Sequence record: KP869111
Direction: 5' to 3' (one strand)
Length of the DNA: 64,000 nucleotides
DNA from: Escherichia coli O157 typing phage 13
Shown here: positions 11,403-24,095 of the stretch, one piece after another
How the letters are laid out: every line of letters begins with the position of its first letter
How positions within the stretch are numbered: the first letter of the stretch is position 1
Position numbers and translations under genes: made by a program
Notes under the pieces: model-generated
Database searches by the model: none
What the model saw: only the letters and a program-made list of their open reading frames with translations
What the model was told of the DNA's origin: nothing

Positions 11403-11873
11403 TTAATCATGTTTCCACACCCCATTGGTATTCGACCAAAGTCGCTGATTATCTGATCCTCGCCACAGTTTTTTGGTCGGAAGATTTTTCTCATACTTCC
11501 CATCAATAATAACATCAACATATTTAAGCATTTCTAGTTGTTTAATATCTTCAAACTTATATCCTGTCCACAACCAAATGCTTTTATTGGGATAAATATT
11601 TTTTACTGTTTGAACAATGCAATGAACAACATCTCTATTATCAGGATAGAGAGGGTCGCCTCCGGTTATAGTCAATCCTTCTATATAATCATTATTCAAA
11701 CATTCAATTAATTGTTCTAGTGTCTCTCCAGTGAATGGAGCACCATTTCTAGCGTTCCATGTTGATTTATTATAACACCCTTCACATTTATGCAAACAAC
11801 CTGTAACGAAAAGAACGACCCTGCAACCAGGGCCATTCACAAAATCGCAAGGATAAAATCTATCATAATTCAT
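11403..11873 (-). CDS. nrdG: Anaerobic ribonucleotide reductase activating protein NrdG (radical SAM)
   Basis: 156 aa, same as T4 NrdG; cysteine cluster CLHKCEGCYN typical of glycyl-radical activases. Confidence 0.9.
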   Translation of the reverse strand: MNYDRFYPCDFVNGPGCRVVLFVTGCLHKCEGCYNKSTWNARNGAPFTGETLEQLIECLNNDYIEGLTITGGDPLYPDNRDVVHCIVQTVKNIYPNKSIWLWTGYKFEDIKQLEMLKYVDVIIDGKYEKNLPTKKLWRGSDNQRLWSNTNGVWKHD

Positions 11874-13687
11874 TGGTGTTTAACCCTATGCATGATTTCT
11901 TTATTTTTACCGAGATTAAATCCGCGTTCGTTCGGATTTCCCAAATAACCGCATGTTCTTCTTATGGTGTTCATCTTTTTAGGATCAGTTTCTCCGCAAA
12001 CTGAACAAACAAATCCGTTTTCAGTAGGAGTCATTTCATGGGTACTTCCACATGTAAAACATTTATCTACTGGCATATTAACACCAAAATAATCTAAATG
12101 TTGTGCAGCATAATCCCAGACAGCCTCAAGTCCCTTTAAATTGTTTTTCATATCTGGAAGTTCAACATAAGAAATGTGACCACCTGTCGCAATGAAATGA
12201 TATGGCGCTTCACGAGAAATCTTTTCAAACGGAGTAATATTTTCTTCTACTGAAACATGGAAACTATTAGTGTACCAGCCTTTATCTGTAACATCTTTTA
12301 CACTTCCATATTTTTCTGTGTCTAGTTTACAGAAACGATAACAAAGGTTTTCAGCAGGTGTAGAATACAAGCTAAAAGCAAACCCAGTTCTTTCAGTCCA
12401 TTGTTTAAGAAGAGCATTCATTTTAGTTAAAATTTCTTGTCCAATATCACGTCCGACAAGAATATTCAATTCGTGGATACCAATGTATCCTAAAGACACT
12501 GAACTTCTACCGTTTTTAAATAACTCAATTATGTCGTCATCAGGTTTAAGACGAACCCCGAATGCACCTTCTTGGTAAAGAATAGGAGCAACAGTCGCTT
12601 TAACTCCTTTTAAGGAACTAATTCTACACATCAAGGCTTCAAAACACAGATCCATACGTTCATTGAATAATTCAACAAATTTCTGTTCATTGAACTGTGT
12701 TCCAATATAAGAATCTAATGCGATACGAGGAAGATTCAGTGTTACAACACCGAGATTATTACGTCCATCAAGAATTTCATTACCAGTCGAATCTTTCCAT
12801 ACGCTCAAGAAACTACGGCAACCCATTGGAGAAACTGGAACTGAAGAACCAGTAATAGCTTTATTATTCTTAGCTGAAATAATATCAGGATACATTCTTT
12901 TGCTTGCGCACTCTAGAGCAAGCTGCTTAATATCATAGTTCGGATCGTCTTTATAAAGATTAACACCTTCTTCAACGAACATAACAAGCTTAGGGAAAAT
13001 AGGAGTTATTCCATCACGACCAAGACCTTTAATGCGGTTTTTAAGAATTGCCTTCTGAATCATTCGTTCAGTCCAATCGGCCCCCGTACCAAATGTAATT
13101 GTTACAAAAGGTGTTTGTCCGTTTGAACTAAAGAGAGTATTTACTTCATATTCATAAGCTTGGAACGCGTCATAGACATCTTTTTCTGTTTTGGATTGAG
13201 CATAATTCAACGCATCAGCGATTTGCCATTTTTCCGCATCTTCAACATGTTTAGCGTATGTGCGTTTAACATAAGGAGAAAGAACTTTATCGACATTTGC
13301 AAATGTAGTTCCGCCATACTGATGTGAAGCAACTTGTGCAGTAATTTGTGCCATAATTGCAGTAGCAACACCAATCGATTTAGGCGTTTCAATTTGAGCA
13401 TTGCCTAATTTAAATCCGTTCTCAAGCATCCCCTTTAAATCGACTAAACAACAATTAGTAAACGGAAGAGCAGGAGAATAATCAATATCATGCATGTGGA
13501 TAATTCCACTTTCATGCGCATTCATAATAAAAGACGGGACCATATTTTTGGCAATGTGCTTAGACACAATACCAGCCATAAGGTCCCGTTGAGTTGGAAA
13601 AACACGAGAATCTTTATTAGCATTCTCGTTTAAAAGGTCTTTATTAGTTTTATGAATTAATCCTTCAATTTCTTTTTCAATTTTCAT
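11870..13687 (-). CDS. nrdD: Anaerobic ribonucleoside-triphosphate reductase NrdD (uninterrupted, no intron)
   Basis: 605 aa, the T4 NrdD length; C-terminal Zn-ribbon CFTCGSTHE...CSVCG and glycyl radical region RTCGYLG. Confidence 0.95.
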   Translation of the reverse strand: MKIEKEIEGLIHKTNKDLLNENANKDSRVFPTQRDLMAGIVSKHIAKNMVPSFIMNAHESGIIHMHDIDYSPALPFTNCCLVDLKGMLENGFKLGNAQIETPKSIGVATAIMAQITAQVASHQYGGTTFANVDKVLSPYVKRTYAKHVEDAEKWQIADALNYAQSKTEKDVYDAFQAYEYEVNTLFSSNGQTPFVTITFGTGADWTERMIQKAILKNRIKGLGRDGITPIFPKLVMFVEEGVNLYKDDPNYDIKQLALECASKRMYPDIISAKNNKAITGSSVPVSPMGCRSFLSVWKDSTGNEILDGRNNLGVVTLNLPRIALDSYIGTQFNEQKFVELFNERMDLCFEALMCRISSLKGVKATVAPILYQEGAFGVRLKPDDDIIELFKNGRSSVSLGYIGIHELNILVGRDIGQEILTKMNALLKQWTERTGFAFSLYSTPAENLCYRFCKLDTEKYGSVKDVTDKGWYTNSFHVSVEENITPFEKISREAPYHFIATGGHISYVELPDMKNNLKGLEAVWDYAAQHLDYFGVNMPVDKCFTCGSTHEMTPTENGFVCSVCGETDPKKMNTIRRTCGYLGNPNERGFNLGKNKEIMHRVKHQ

Positions 13688-20517: not shown

Positions 20518-21498
20518 TTATTTCAGTAAAGTAACTTCCGAGATTTCTTCCCAACCATCTTTATCAGTTGAAATAAAATCTGCTACATAAAGAGCCGTAC
20601 GTAATGATACATTGCGAAGACGAGATACGTTAGCCTTCATCCAGGACAATGCTTTATACGTTTCTGCATCCGTCAGACCACGTTTCTGCATCATGTCAGT
20701 AGATAATATTACATCTTCAACTCGAACCATAATCTCTTCATTAGAGTGTACTCCAAGGTCGAGATACACTGAACGAGATACTAAAGCTTGAAGGTGTGGA
20801 GCAAGTTTCGAACCCCGTTCTAACTCTTTATCGATATCAACGTTTGTAATGAAAACGATAGTACCTTCAAACTCAAATTCTTTATCAATACCCTTATCCT
20901 CGAGATAAGATGACGCAGTGCTCCAACAAACTTTGCGTTTATCTCCGGTATCTAATGCTGCTTTAAGAAGGTTCAGGATGTCCATATCTGAGAATACGTC
21001 AACGTCATCGATTAAGAGAACGCTGTCTTCATCACGGTTGAGCCAAAGTTGTTCGTAAAGGCCAATACCAGAGATTTTACCATTAATGCTTTTGTATTTG
21101 ATGAAACCATTATCATTAGCATTATTAAGTGCTTTATCCAGAGAATACGTCTTACCAATACCAGCTGCACCTGAAATAATGAGTGAACGAATTTTGCCAT
21201 CGATAATGCCATTCGTCATCATGTTCATTACTTTAAAGCGTTTGTTGATACGGGTTTTCATATCTTCAGTGCTTTCAACAACTGCAACTGGTGATGTCTC
21301 AACTCCTTCCATTACGATGTCTGATTTGAAGACCCATACTCCACGTTCAGAACCATCAATCATAACGAAAATTTTACCATCACCTAAGTGGGAACATTCA
21401 GGATTAAGCTTTGCCGGGAACCAGGTCTTTGTGGCAACATAAGAACCAGAGATTTCGTTATTACGATAGATACCTTTTTTGATTTGAACGTTGAACAT
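20518..21498 (-). CDS. Putative AAA+/P-loop ATPase with an N-terminal domain of unknown function
   Basis: Track ORF 20518-21519; ATG at 21498 has a GGAGA Shine-Dalgarno; Walker A ISGAAGIGKTYS, Walker B VLLIDDVDVF, sensor-like IVFITN. Confidence 0.6.
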   Translation of the reverse strand: MFNVQIKKGIYRNNEISGSYVATKTWFPAKLNPECSHLGDGKIFVMIDGSERGVWVFKSDIVMEGVETSPVAVVESTEDMKTRINKRFKVMNMMTNGIIDGKIRSLIISGAAGIGKTYSLDKALNNANDNGFIKYKSINGKISGIGLYEQLWLNRDEDSVLLIDDVDVFSDMDILNLLKAALDTGDKRKVCWSTASSYLEDKGIDKEFEFEGTIVFITNVDIDKELERGSKLAPHLQALVSRSVYLDLGVHSNEEIMVRVEDVILSTDMMQKRGLTDAETYKALSWMKANVSRLRNVSLRTALYVADFISTDKDGWEEISEVTLLK

Positions 21499-21584
21499 TT
21501 TATTCTCCAATTTACTCATTTCGTTTCGATAGGTCTATAGTATCATATCCTAAAAGCATGTACACTACTTTTTAAAAATATTTT

Positions 21585-21611
21585 AACCCCCTAAAGGGAC
21601 CCGAAGGTCCC
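21585..21611 (-). terminator. Terminator-like UUCG-tetraloop hairpin after the secreted-protein gene
   Basis: Minus strand GGGACC-TTCG-GGTCCC followed by TTTAGGGGGTT; immediately 3' of the stop at 21617. Confidence 0.5.
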
Positions 21612-21616
21612 CACAT

Positions 21617-21883
21617 TTACTTATCACACTTAGCAACATAATTAGGCATATCACAGAATACAGAGCGAGTAACTACTCGACCCTTTGACCATGCTTCAGT
21701 TGCTTGTCCGGCCGTGCTATTAATATAGCTTGATTTAATGTTCTCAATACCCTGAGAATGTGATGCATTTACCGAACCGTTAGAAGGCCCAGAAGACTGG
21801 TTACCACCAGCTCCTGCGCCCGTGGTAGCACCAACAGAGAATGCCATCATTACTGCGAATAAACCAATTACTAATTTTTTCAT
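21617..21883 (-). CDS. Small secreted protein (predicted signal peptide)
   Basis: 88 aa; N-terminal MKKLVIGLFAVMMAFSVGA typical signal peptide, then Gly/Ser/Asn-rich linker and a C-terminal region with two Cys. Confidence 0.55.
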   Translation of the reverse strand: MKKLVIGLFAVMMAFSVGATTGAGAGGNQSSGPSNGSVNASHSQGIENIKSSYINSTAGQATEAWSKGRVVTRSVFCDMPNYVAKCDK

Positions 21884-21914
21884 ATTTACCTCAAGTTAAT
21901 GGTTATTTATCTAT

Positions 21915-22904
21915 TTATTTATAGTAAGAATTATGATTTTCGAGATAGACTTGCTCAAGGAAGTCATCCCAGAAACTCATATCTACTTTTTGTTGCATAC
22001 CGTTCTTAGCGGCTTGTTCTGACGCATGTTCAACTTGGTCAACGATATCTTCTAGGAATTCTTGCACAGTTTTAAACGTATGTTTACCAAGCTTAACATC
22101 GAGAATAAATGGAGCATCCTGAAGTGGGTAAACCAGGTCGCCGGTTTTGTAAATTTCCAATAATTGAAGTCCACCACGACATGCATGACTCAATGCTTTC
22201 CAGTCAATACCTTCGTTAGCTTCTGCCTTACGAGCACGTTCGCCATAGTTCTCTTCCAGTTTAACCAGGATGGCATTGAACTCTTTATTGGTTAACGTAT
22301 CTTGGAATTTACGGTCTAACAGATTATAGAATGTTTGCTTACCTGTTTTCTCGTTTTCGGTTTCAACCCATGAAGCAAATTCACCTACAGGCAGAACATT
22401 CTTCATATGTGATAAACGAATTACTGCACCATTATCAAAGTATTGTCCCCATTCATTAGAACGTTTAAGGGCTTGACGAAGAACAGCCAGTCGAGAACCC
22501 TTGACACCGTATTTAGAAGCTTGCTTACGGACATACCCTAAATAAGATTTCATGTTAGTGGTATAGAAACGAGACCTGTTATCTTGAATATACTTCCATA
22601 CATCAGGCAAATCAGATTTAACTACTAGACTTTGTGGAGTGTGAAGCATATCTAATGCGACGGTTTCACCATCTGCAGCTAGTTTAAAGAAATATTTGAG
22701 ACTATATAACTCATGGTCCACGTCGTCTTTTGTGTTCTTAGAAGATGTGTTATTCGTGTTCTTGCTCATGTGTTCTTTAACGTTACCGGTCAAGATATCA
22801 CGAGCATGAGGGACATAAATTTCTTTAAAATCGACGTCAGATTCAGGAGTAGACGTTCCATAAAGGTGGCTACCAAAGTAGCCTTTCATAATTGTTTTCA
22901 TCAT
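21915..22904 (-). CDS. Putative Pol-beta-superfamily nucleotidyltransferase
   Basis: 329 aa; N-terminal GS-x3-GT-x4-SDVD (YFGSHLYGTSTPESDVDF) plus downstream acidic residue (VALDM); start overlaps the stop of the upstream membrane-protein gene (ATGA). Confidence 0.6.
   Translation of the reverse strand: MMKTIMKGYFGSHLYGTSTPESDVDFKEIYVPHARDILTGNVKEHMSKNTNNTSSKNTKDDVDHELYSLKYFFKLAADGETVALDMLHTPQSLVVKSDLPDVWKYIQDNRSRFYTTNMKSYLGYVRKQASKYGVKGSRLAVLRQALKRSNEWGQYFDNGAVIRLSHMKNVLPVGEFASWVETENEKTGKQTFYNLLDRKFQDTLTNKEFNAILVKLEENYGERARKAEANEGIDWKALSHACRGGLQLLEIYKTGDLVYPLQDAPFILDVKLGKHTFKTVQEFLEDIVDQVEHASEQAAKNGMQQKVDMSFWDDFLEQVYLENHNSYYK
21916..21923 (-). promoter_or_regulatory. Late promoter-like TATAAATA upstream of the secreted-protein gene
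   Basis: Exact TATAAATA on the minus strand overlapping the last codons of the nucleotidyltransferase gene, 33 nt upstream of the ATG at 21883. Confidence 0.45.
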
Positions 22905-23374
22905 TTAGCCTTATATTCAAGAGTAGGACAGACTTTTTCTTTACGAGCTTTAAGGTATTCGCCTATTAATGATTTCTTACGTTCAATAGGCTCAAGTCCA
23001 TTTTTAATTCGTTCTTGGTTTTGCGCAATGAGCTCAATTTCTTTATAATATTTTCTGTCGTTATATTTGTCTAACAACCAAGACGGACCAATTACCAACC
23101 CGGTAGCAATAAAAGCCATGACTGCTACAATTAAAATGCCTACACCAATTGAGGCTGGAACTAATGTCCATAGACTGCTAAAAACAAAGAATTTAGTTAA
23201 AATTTCCTGGCCAATGATTGTGACTGCTGCTAAAATCGCAAATCCAATAATTGAAACAGCCAATACCGGGATTAACGTTTTCCAAAAATAAGCACACAAC
23301 GTTTTCGGACGATTCCATGTACTATTGAACGCGGCATAAATTTTAAAGTGCCAAGAGTTTTCATTGATAATCAT
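22901..23374 (-). CDS. Hypothetical membrane protein (about 3 transmembrane helices)
   Basis: 157 aa; hydrophobic segments LIPVLAVSIIGFAILAAVTII, FFVFSSLWTLVPASIGVGILIVAVMAFIATGLVI; AAGGA Shine-Dalgarno. Confidence 0.55.
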   Translation of the reverse strand: MIINENSWHFKIYAAFNSTWNRPKTLCAYFWKTLIPVLAVSIIGFAILAAVTIIGQEILTKFFVFSSLWTLVPASIGVGILIVAVMAFIATGLVIGPSWLLDKYNDRKYYKEIELIAQNQERIKNGLEPIERKKSLIGEYLKARKEKVCPTLEYKAK

Positions 23375-23383
23375 AATAATTCC

Positions 23384-23914
23384 TTATTTCAAAGTTGGGA
23401 TAATAGAATCGAGATAAGCTTTAAGAGCAACTGCTTCATCTTTGTCTAATGTAACGATATGTTGACGAAGGTCATCAATTTGACGAATAACTACAACATC
23501 GCCATCTTCATAAGAAGGATTAACGCCTAGGACCGTTGTATAGTCAGGGCGGTCCTGATTTGTAATAAAAGCATTACGGCATTTAGCCCATTGAAGTTTG
23601 GCCTTTTTGGCTATTTCAGATTCCATTAATTCTTTCACCTTAGTGACGAATGTTTTCCAATTATTGATAGAAAGGCATTCATCTTCTGTTTCGATATTAA
23701 CCCCACTATAAAGACCGTGATAAAAACGAACTTGAAGGTCTTCATCGATGTTAATTACAGATGCATGGCCTGGCGGATTGAGTTTCAAAATCTTGTCCAG
23801 TTCCATAGGAAGAATAGTAACAGAATCATCTTCTTGTGTCAGAACGTAAGCATAACCACGTTTTTCGATACATAAATCACCAAACAACTCGGTTGTTTCA
23901 ATTACAATTTTCAT
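23384..23914 (-). CDS. Hypothetical protein
   Basis: Track ORF starts with TTG at 23926; ATG at 23914 gives 176 aa (MKIVIETTELFGDL...). Confidence 0.55.
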   Translation of the reverse strand: MKIVIETTELFGDLCIEKRGYAYVLTQEDDSVTILPMELDKILKLNPPGHASVINIDEDLQVRFYHGLYSGVNIETEDECLSINNWKTFVTKVKELMESEIAKKAKLQWAKCRNAFITNQDRPDYTTVLGVNPSYEDGDVVVIRQIDDLRQHIVTLDKDEAVALKAYLDSIIPTLK

Positions 23915-23915
23915 A

Positions 23916-24095
23916 TTATTCACCAATTAAAGTTTCAACAAAATTCACCAAAGCATTCTGGCACGCATCAACCTGATTTTCATAAAAGTCTCCGTTATCA
24001 TTTACCGCGTGATAAGCTACATCATTCAAATCTGAATCGGCTTCACGTAGGTCACGGATAAGGTCCATCAATTTATTAGCTTGTTCACGGGTCAT
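23916..24095 (-). CDS. Small acidic protein, 58 aa (not in ORF track)
   Basis: Hand-translated MTREQANKLMDLIRDLREADSDLNDVAYHAVNDNGDFYENQVDACQNALVNFVETLIGE; ATG overlaps the stop of the upstream small ORF (ATGA). Confidence 0.35.
   Translation of the reverse strand: MTREQANKLMDLIRDLREADSDLNDVAYHAVNDNGDFYENQVDACQNALVNFVETLIGE

Follow-up and report, generated by a model that had tools for sequence, protein, structure and literature searches.

The window analysed here is a stretch of 64,000 nucleotides from Escherichia coli O157 typing phage 13 (sequence record KP869111), and E. coli O157 typing phage 3/6 (Mosigvirus) shows 100% identity to it. The four open reading frames of the original prediction are all found, side by side on the minus strand: a membrane protein of 157 aa (22901..23374; PHROG 944, E = 3e-53), a nucleotidyltransferase of 329 aa (NTase; 21915..22904), a predicted secreted protein of 88 aa (21617..21883; PHROG 2243) and an AAA+ ATPase of 326 aa (20518..21498; PHROG 1250, E = 6e-162). 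The locus is the nrdC.10-nrdC.11 stretch in the early region of a T4-like Mosigvirus, and the guess that it contained conserved ORFs of the T4 nrdC.10/nrdC.11 type was correct; T4 NrdC.11 and NrdC.10 are the orthologues of the NTase and the ATPase, respectively, each at 78% identity. A literature search found no experiment on either gene, and the PADLOC and NCBIfam libraries provided no informative match for these four proteins. Likewise, single-sequence and profile searches of the PDB with the NTase, its N-terminal domain, the ATPase and the membrane protein retrieved chance-level matches only.

The NTase is a Pol-beta nucleotidyltransferase of the RlaP family, matching PF10127 with E = 5.9e-13 (49.5 bits, for a cutoff of 23), and the same model is precomputed on every close homologue among the matches listed. 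The family is already known, and it is large, with 3242 clusters in a library clustered at 50% identity (E ≤ 1e-3). An initial homologue search gave near-identical sequences only; the diverse relatives compared here were drawn from this clustered library. The N-terminus, MMKTIMKGYFGSHLYGTSTPESDVDF, contains the signature GS-x3-GT-x4-SDVD that had been pointed out, of which G11, S12, S22, D23 and D25 are invariant in the NTase and 87 diverse relatives; the acidic residue proposed downstream is also present, with D61, D63 and D85 conserved in at least 90% of these relatives. The alignment shows that the phage protein has the RlaP Pol-beta core, with its G[GS] loop, its DxD motif and an additional conserved carboxylate. 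D61, D63 and D85 are likewise the candidates for the third metal ligand.

The AF2 model of the NTase (pLDDT 94) is composed of an NTase domain, approximately at residues 1-115, and a helical domain at residues 119-328. This plan is compatible with the published description of PfRlaP, with an N-terminal NTase domain, a C-terminal helical domain and a cleft, the two being compared by description only. The nearest solved folds are Pol-beta NTases, the closest of them being HalB. The model, its solved neighbours and the conservation of the residues all bear out the Pol-beta-type fold with an intact catalytic motif. The PF10127 match covers only residues 7-152, indicating that the C-terminal domain is unlike its counterpart in the cluster-1 enzymes that have been characterised.

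The same motif had led to a comparison with cGAS/DncV-like, minimal and AbiEii-type NTases, in which the enzyme would make or destroy a nucleotide signal within an operon including a membrane effector and the ATPase. However, the GS...DxD motif is common to all enzymes of the Pol-beta superfamily, and it is all that the CD-NTases (cGAS/DncV-like, from CBASS) share with the phage protein. CD-NTase and SMODS models gave no PADLOC match at E ≤ 0.1 and no Pfam match, and the cGAS/DncV-like fold was not among the nearest structural neighbours. AbiEii/MenT models (DUF1814) were not matched in Pfam or PADLOC, and no AbiEi-like neighbour is annotated. The comparison can draw on a weak match to MntA in the motif region, which is sub-threshold (12.9 bits for a cutoff of 60, E = 0.075) and extends over 18 residues only, and there is no HEPN gene adjoining the NTase. 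Neither is there a conserved adjoining effector gene, as would be expected in CBASS; T4 lacks the membrane gene, which elsewhere is often separated from the NTase by inserts or found in loci lacking an NTase (see below), and this also speaks against the membrane-coupled signalling operon that had been suggested. This reading is already largely refuted, and we regard it as extremely unlikely, the least probable of those considered here. ANT(4') kanamycin/aminoglycoside NTases and the NTase-like protein 3c18 use small-molecule acceptors and show no sequence relationship to the phage NTase; the phage locus has no resistance context either.

The membrane protein had been described as having three helices. 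Its hydropathy profile contains hydrophobic blocks at residues ca. 32-55 and 62-102, the latter of 41 residues, so that hydrophobic helices are indeed present, two or three in number, with the third not secure. The conserved positions W8, C27, Y29 and C149 are located in cysteine-containing motifs at the N- and C-terminal ends. As noted before, the gene overlaps that of the NTase in an ATGA stop/start (22901..22904, minus strand; sequence ...GCTAAATGATGAAAACA); the junction reads ...AAATGATGAAA, in which the TGA stop of the membrane protein overlaps the NTase start by 4 nt if translation starts at the first NTase ATG, and by 1 nt at the second ATG, which is the RefSeq start. The membrane gene is found upstream of the NTase in 38 of 40 close T-even-type loci, abutting it in 13 of these 38, and in T4 its position is occupied by mobD. 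In loci found from the membrane-protein side, using a narrower alignment because the broad one had no conserved stretch, 17 of 31 had no NTase nearby, with examples in ICP1-like, Aeromonas and ca. 93-kb phages. In ICP1, the gene after the membrane protein was considered as a possible NTase and, when checked, was not one. The membrane protein is a small, fast-evolving, syntenic neighbour of the NTase rather than a demonstrated partner.

These data also bear on the likeness to Hailong, where HalB is an NTase that synthesises oligodeoxyadenylate, without extending RNA, and whose partner is the channel HalA. HalB (PDB 9dbh) is the closest solved fold to the NTase, which therefore contains a HalB-like NTase fold, at 16% identity; the gene order is the same in both systems, and the frequent upstream position of the membrane gene fits as well. 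The two phage proteins might then form a Hailong-like pair, with an oligonucleotide gating the co-translated membrane protein or a decoy keeping the HalA of the host shut, which we consider highly improbable. Slightly less probable still, for T-even-type phages, is a phage-borne relative working on the Hailong principle, whose short oligonucleotide would control the cysteine-motif membrane protein, for superinfection exclusion or the timing of lysis, or whose decoy would silence oligonucleotide-gated channels of the host. Unlike HalB, the phage NTase is ca. 110 residues longer and belongs to a Pfam family that extends RNA and is not known for protein-primed poly-dA synthesis; Y132 is invariant across the 87 diverse relatives, although this is no proof of priming. 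Moreover, the membrane partner is not obligatory, as illustrated by T4, which has the NTase alone. Hailong chains were not retrieved in the PDB profile and single-sequence searches with the NTase, or with the membrane protein at E ≤ 10.

Between nrdC.11 and nrdC.10 lies the gene for the 88-aa protein, whose MKK and hydrophobic N-terminus are typical of a Sec signal, in agreement with the signal peptide predicted originally, and which contains two C-terminal cysteines. The gene, a sporadic insertion, occurs in 102 phage records, all from Escherichia or Shigella; just two of 40 T-even-type loci contain it, and T4 lacks it. Downstream of it there is a GC-rich hairpin with a UUCG tetraloop (21595..21612, minus strand), which had been taken as a terminator. 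The stem-loop exists (GGGGACC-UUCG-GGUCCC), but its run of U residues is broken (UUUAGGGGGUU) and its folding energy does not stand out from that of shuffled sequences (z = -1.2), indicating that it is a weak terminator in this phage. T4 has a hairpin at the same position after nrdC.11 (GGGAGCC-UUCG-GGCUCCC), which is followed by a proper U-run, U6AU3.

The ATPase conforms to the P-loop ATPase that had been proposed, with an AAA+ core and a helical lid. Its Walker A (GAAGIGKT) and Walker B (LLIDDVD) motifs correspond to GxxGxGKT and hhhhDD patterns that are invariant in 48 homologues; the RefSeq start, at 21498, yields 326 aa, and a longer ORF of 333 aa is also open. Matches in Pfam were weak (AAA_22/AAA_16), whereas Foldseek searches with the AF2 model (pLDDT 90) produced 157 PDB matches at E ≤ 1e-3, the best 50 of these 157 being AAA+ ATPases. 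They are generic AAA+ proteins (NorQ/MoxR, NtrC1, RuvB, RFC), with best TM values of ca. 0.47-0.58, and no specific clade was singled out by Foldseek. The phage protein shares with MoxR/NorQ, NtrC-type, RuvB and clamp-loader ATPases the Walker motifs, the alpha-beta-alpha core and the helical lid, and differs from them in an additional, beta-rich N-terminal domain (residues ca. 1-64).

Upstream of the ATPase gene there is a putative promoter, GTGTACA followed by a 16-nt spacer and TACTAT (21537..21565, minus strand), proposed from its resemblance to T4 early promoters; T4 has GTTTACA-N17-TACTAT at the same position, and a generic sigma-70 scan did not pick up the site. Because the hairpin and this promoter-like site intervene, the ATPase is apparently transcribed separately from the NTase, and the same arrangement occurs in T4. 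This, together with the sporadic occurrence of the 88-aa gene, counters the unity implied when the genes were originally described as one cluster; the four genes are separable. A single functional module, formed by all four genes or at least by the NTase and the ATPase, would be in line with the order membrane gene-NTase-ATPase, conserved across 31 of 40 T-even-type loci as well as in Acinetobacter phages. Nevertheless, the NTase-ATPase gap ranges from 112 to 2281 nt, owing to the insertion of other genes, and the NTase has no ATPase nearby in 8 of 40 close and 35 of 39 distant loci. Conversely, ValKK3 and 37 T4-like loci, marine or other, carry the ATPase but no NTase, and the phyletic counts of the two genes differ. 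We therefore consider such a module very unlikely. The ATPase is independent of the NTase; it and the membrane and 88-aa proteins are neighbours through synteny rather than parts of one machine. Its distant neighbourhoods, which include nrdB and a UvsW-like helicase, suggested no function.

The textbook example of RNA repair as a viral counter-defence is the repair of tRNAs by T4 Pnkp and Rnl1 after cleavage by the anticodon nuclease PrrC, and RloC-type nucleases have been proposed to defeat repair of the T4 type by also excising the wobble nucleotide. T4 NrdC.11 has already been named in the literature as a member of RlaP, within cluster 5. The characterised RlaPs, PfRlaP and PaRlaP from Pseudomonas, add one or two NMPs to the 3'-OH of RNA, with a preference for Mn2+ and for mimics of cleaved tRNA, and do not accept DNA or protein. 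RlaP rescues the aminoacylation of a tRNA that is short of one nucleotide in the anticodon loop and, on one tRNA mimic, favours the 3' end of the cleaved anticodon loop over the acceptor end. It shows little specificity for the NTP and, in total RNA from E. coli, labels RNAs with the sizes of rRNA, tRNA and fragments. It was also predicted that RlaP restores the nucleotides removed by RloC, and its distribution in jumbo phages mirrors that of RNA ligases. The phage NTase has in common with these enzymes the GS...DxD core and, judging from its model and their published description, probably the two-domain plan, with an NTase and a C-terminal helical domain. It differs from them in belonging to cluster 5 instead of cluster 1a, in that the Pfam model fits its N-terminal half only, and in that no ligase gene adjoins it in phages.

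Full-length bacterial relatives of the NTase, with 33-42% identity, are associated with RNA repair; RtcB, Pnkp plus Hen1 or Ro/TROVE were found within 8 kb in 17 of 80 bacterial loci, with no repair neighbour in the other 63, and among the 44 loci whose flanks were complete, 12 had repair genes. In phage phiM19, the NTase homologue is flanked by two RNA-ligase genes. No RNA-repair gene was found within 8 kb of the NTase at the locus of this phage, nor in 79 viral loci; Rnl1, Pnk (Pnkp) and Rnl2 are all encoded in the phage genome, more than 50 kb away from the NTase.

When phages are grouped by host genus, the distribution of the NTase resembles that of Rnl1 and differs from those of the neighbouring genes. 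The counts for NTase, Rnl1 and the gp45 core, which are aggregates by host genus not corrected for shared ancestry, were 286, 287 and 321 in phages of Klebsiella and 59, 54 and 117 in those of Vibrio; for Salmonella they were 35, <45 and 192, and for Synechococcus, <31, <45 and 356. The counts for the ATPase (Klebsiella 149, Vibrio 121) and the membrane protein (Klebsiella 138) did not track those of Rnl1. The nrdC.11-mobD.3 segment can be lost from T4, and one T4 record lacks most of nrdC.11; the gene is thus dispensable in the laboratory, which fits an accessory role.

By analogy with the two Pseudomonas RlaPs, which are the source of the biochemistry, the phage NTase would most likely act on RNA 3' ends and serve in tRNA repair, and we consider counter-defence by an RlaP taking part in this repair to be its most likely role, and a probable one. 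An RloC-type anticodon nuclease of the host would cut and trim the anticodon loop of a tRNA, whose ends would first be healed by the polynucleotide kinase-phosphatase of the phage. The 5' half of the broken tRNA would then be extended by the NTase at its 3'-OH, with one or two nucleotides that need no template, and RNA ligase 1 would restore the full-length tRNA. On this view, the NTase would be an accessory of the classic T4 pathway for tRNA repair, with a counter-defence function. Weighing against this role are the partial fit of the Pfam model, the distance of more than 50 kb between the NTase and the ligases and kinase of the phage, the 79 viral loci with no repair gene within 8 kb, the 63 bacterial loci with no repair neighbour, and the fact that HalB, the closest solved fold, does not extend RNA; the phyletic match to Rnl1, in turn, is limited by the aggregation of the counts.

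The NTase could instead extend or modify RNA 3' ends with a function unrelated to the repair of damage by anticodon nucleases; for example, it might mend or mature the CCA end of phage or host tRNAs, add tails to mRNAs or small RNAs, or poison host tRNAs as MenT toxins do. The relaxed NTP specificity of RlaP and the variety of RNA sizes it labels would agree with this, as would the lack of linkage between the phage gene and ligase genes and its dispensability in the laboratory. Against it stand the preference of RlaP for the cleaved anticodon loop over the acceptor end and the company that the bacterial relatives keep with sealing and healing enzymes (RtcB, Pnkp/Hen1); besides, the MenT/AbiEii models are unmatched, and a scan of the window detected no tRNA genes. 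We judge this alternative unlikely.

If NrdC.11-type RlaPs do replace the lost nucleotide, this replacement would represent a third step in the arms race of T4-like phages, and the step would be widespread, since the gene is present in ca. 1,500 sequenced phages. The restoration of nucleotides was already predicted in the literature and is thus not a new concept here; our analysis clears away the reading of the locus as a signalling operon and adds as context that bacterial RtcB and Pnkp/Hen1 operons hold relatives of the phage clade and that the distribution of the gene follows that of Rnl1. Separately, the label 'thioredoxin', carried by both the NTase and the ATPase in many database records, is wrong.

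All four minus-strand genes of the original prediction are present in the window, encoding a membrane protein (22901-23374; PHROG 944 family), a nucleotidyltransferase (NTase; 21915-22904), an 88-aa protein (21617-21883) and an AAA+ ATPase (20518-21498). Over these 3.1 kb, E. coli O157 typing phages 3 and 6 (Mosigvirus, Tevenvirinae) match the sequence at 100% identity, and many other coliphages at 98% or more. The equivalent interval of T4 contains, in this order, nrdC.10 (325 aa), nrdC.11 (336 aa), mobD and mobD.1, and the suspicion that conserved T4-type ORFs were involved was correct, with 78% identity both for the ATPase versus NrdC.10 and for the NTase versus NrdC.11. The T4 interval has no counterpart of the 88-aa gene, and mobD, encoding an HNH homing endonuclease, occupies the exact position of the membrane gene. 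In our T4 locus, mobD (12430-13209) overlaps the start of nrdC.11, while T2/T6-type phages carry the membrane gene there; T4 mobD looks like a homing-endonuclease insertion that displaced a gene. Directly upstream of the membrane gene in typing phage 13 there is a minus-strand mobD.1/y05I homologue (23384-23926), whose product matches the N- and C-terminal T4_y05I domains of Pfam (E=1e-40 and 1e-19; 'putative transcription factor'). The original prediction is thus a correct account of a known, annotated region.

The start of the NTase, MMKTIMKGYFGSHLYGTSTPESDVDF, contains the exact GS-x3-GT-x4-SDVD pattern that had been described. The protein matches Pfam PF10127 (RlaP, 'RNA repair pathway DNA polymerase beta family') with 49.5 bits, over a threshold of 23, and PHROG 388 with E=4e-126, and its family comprises 3242 clusters (50% identity clustering, E<=1e-3). 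Residues G11, S12, S22, D23, D25, Y132, K236, R243 and G273 are invariant, and D61, D63 and D85 nearly so, when the protein is aligned with 86 diverse relatives (34-52% identity). In the AlphaFold model (pLDDT 94), the NTase domain is N-terminal and is followed by a large helical domain at the C-terminus; Foldseek found no close solved structure, the only matches, all weak, being kanamycin nucleotidyltransferase, 3c18, Hailong HalB and LinB. Enzymes of the cGAS/DncV type were absent from both structure-match lists, PADLOC returned no match for any of the four proteins, and the minimal-NTase signal was limited to a single sub-threshold match of 18 residues. Therefore, the predicted nucleotidyltransferase fold was right, with a confident model and Pol-beta-type matches, but the families proposed for it (cGAS/DncV-like, minimal NTase and AbiEii) were not. 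Together, our results indicate that the NTase belongs to RlaP and is orthologous to T4 NrdC.11. Its reading as a signalling enzyme is unsupported, given the RlaP assignment and no match of the CD-NTase type. The NrdC.10 and NrdC.11 homologues are named 'thioredoxin' in UniRef and in a large share of the phage genomes deposited; Pfam detects no thioredoxin domain in the NTase or the ATPase, and the name was apparently taken from the loci nrdC.10 and nrdC.11, with no homology behind it.

Two RlaPs of Pseudomonas, with genes located between rtcB and rtcA, were characterised in a December 2025 preprint: they attach one or two NMPs (or dNMPs) to RNA 3'-OH ends, prefer Mn2+, favour a 3' end created by anticodon-loop cleavage and do not modify DNA or proteins; when they act before ligation, a tRNA lacking one anticodon-loop nucleotide regains aminoacylation. 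The same preprint assigns T4 NrdC.11 to RlaP cluster 5, with function unknown. Earlier, a comparison of jumbo phages had noted that the distribution of RlaP mirrors that of RNA ligases, and predicted that it puts back nucleotides cut out by RloC-type nucleases. Our literature search found no experiments on nrdC.10 or nrdC.11. A published report on genome-reduced T4 indicates that loss of the nrdC.11-mobD.3 block is tolerated. A T4 record of 159,752 bp (OL964745.1) retains just the last 39 codons of nrdC.11, which is consistent with that loss.

We scanned bacteria, using one genome per species, and obtained 80 loci whose NTase is a full-length relative of the phage enzyme (33-52% identity). In 17 of them, a gene for RtcB, Pnkp with Hen1, or Ro/TROVE was no more than 8 kb away, in most cases on the same strand, and Pfam backed these identities (E 1e-37 to 1e-169); among loci with complete flanks, the figure was 12 of 44. 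The association with RNA repair therefore extends to the clade of the phage enzyme, beyond the Pseudomonas cluster. A contig from an uncultured Nitrosospira (CAADGK010000054.1) carries genes for Ro/TROVE, RtcB, an RlaP-type NTase, Hen1 and Pnkp on one strand within ca. 10 kb, a compact island uniting both RNA-sealing systems; its NTase match, of 1383 nt, is longer than usual. Among phages, the NTase homologue of Sinorhizobium phage phiM19 is flanked by two RNA-ligase genes. Genes for RNA ligase 1, polynucleotide kinase and RNA ligase 2 are also present in typing phage 13; they lie outside the window, each at over 50 kb from the NTase gene.

Record counts by host genus, for which each search gives its top ten genera, point in the same direction. 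For NTase, Rnl1, the core gene gp45, ATPase and membrane protein, respectively, they were 286, 287, 321, 149 and 138 in Klebsiella; 83, 83, 89, 76 and 76 in Shigella; 56, 56, 59, 36 and 36 in Enterobacter; 59, 54, 117, 121 and 86 in Vibrio; and 35, <45, 192, 39 and 26 in Salmonella. Acinetobacter (69, 69, 69 and 72) is outside the membrane-protein top ten, and Synechococcus (<31, <45 and 356) outside those of both the ATPase and the membrane protein. NTase counts track Rnl1 and not the physical neighbours, a parallel that is only supportive because the counts are aggregated by genus and uncorrected for phylogeny. Most likely, the NTase restores nucleotides in the phage: host anticodon nucleases would attack tRNAs and leave trimmed RNA ends, the NTase would add nucleotides back onto them, and phage Pnkp and Rnl1 would then be able to repair the tRNAs. 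This RlaP-type hypothesis is already published; our analysis provides it with a ready-made test case, and corrects a widespread 'thioredoxin' mislabel.

The predicted ATGA coupling is also there, since the junction reads AAATGATGAAA and the membrane-gene stop and the NTase start hence share 4 nt (1 nt with the second NTase ATG, the start preferred by RefSeq). We surveyed 79 viral loci encoding the NTase. Among the 40 with at least 60% NTase identity, the membrane gene is upstream in 38, abutting in 13, with 0.4-1.8 kb inserted in the non-abutting pairs; the ATPase is downstream in 32, at gaps of 112-2281 nt, and the 88-aa gene occurs in two. The corresponding figures for the 39 loci below 60% are five, four and none for membrane gene, ATPase and 88-aa gene. 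Starting from the membrane protein, an NTase was found within 8 kb in 14 of 31 loci, those lacking it being from ICP1-like, ~93-kb and Aeromonas jumbo phages, to which PHROG 944 extends. A pair resembling Hailong, with its HalA channel and HalB NTase, is very improbable: there is no link at the sequence level, T4 lacks the membrane gene, and the two genes are frequently apart and found independently. The same observations leave the proposed membrane-coupled operon unsupported. Likewise, Vibrio phage ValKK3 has the ATPase and no NTase, and 37 T4-like loci, marine or other, have the ATPase by itself, with nrdB and a UvsW-like helicase nearby. What the cluster represents is synteny conserved among T-even-type phages rather than a functional operon.

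The membrane protein is hydrophobic as predicted, but the number of helices, given as three, is less definite (one clear helix plus a 41-residue hydrophobic block, equivalent to two or three). No Pfam family covers it, nor is it similar to any solved chain. Transmembrane segments vary across its family, and the termini are strikingly conserved (N-terminal NSWHxxL...P.SLCxYFWK and C-terminal F[IL]KA[KR]KxKxCPxIEF), with W8, C27, Y29 and C149 invariant, which suggests a metal or disulfide site. The 88-aa protein does have a signal-like N-terminus, and its gene is found in 102 phage records, all from Escherichia/Shigella.

Between the 88-aa and ATPase genes, the stem-loop of the predicted terminator exists (21595-21612; GGGGACC-UUCG-GGUCCC); the U-run is broken and stability is ordinary relative to shuffled sequences. 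The stretch that separates nrdC.10 from nrdC.11 (in T4) or from the 88-aa gene (here) holds, in either phage, a UUCG hairpin and then a promoter-like sequence, GT(T/G)TACA...TACTAT, and for this reason the ATPase is apparently transcribed from a start of its own. The T4 hairpin (ca. 11405-11425 in our T4 locus) also has UUCG on a GC stem, GGGAGCC versus GGGGACC here, so that structure is kept and sequence changed. The ATPase contains the anticipated Walker A and B motifs (GAAGIGKT and LLIDDVD), and its model (pLDDT 90) shows a standard AAA+ core, a lid and an additional N-terminal beta domain; the best structural matches (NorQ/MoxR, NtrC1, RuvB and RFC) are all generic. The N-terminal domain (residues 1-64) is all-beta, the C-terminal helical region (251-307) weakly matches HTH_37 (E=0.0016), and one metagenome source calls a homologue 'XRE-type DNA-binding protein', which may hint at nucleic-acid binding.
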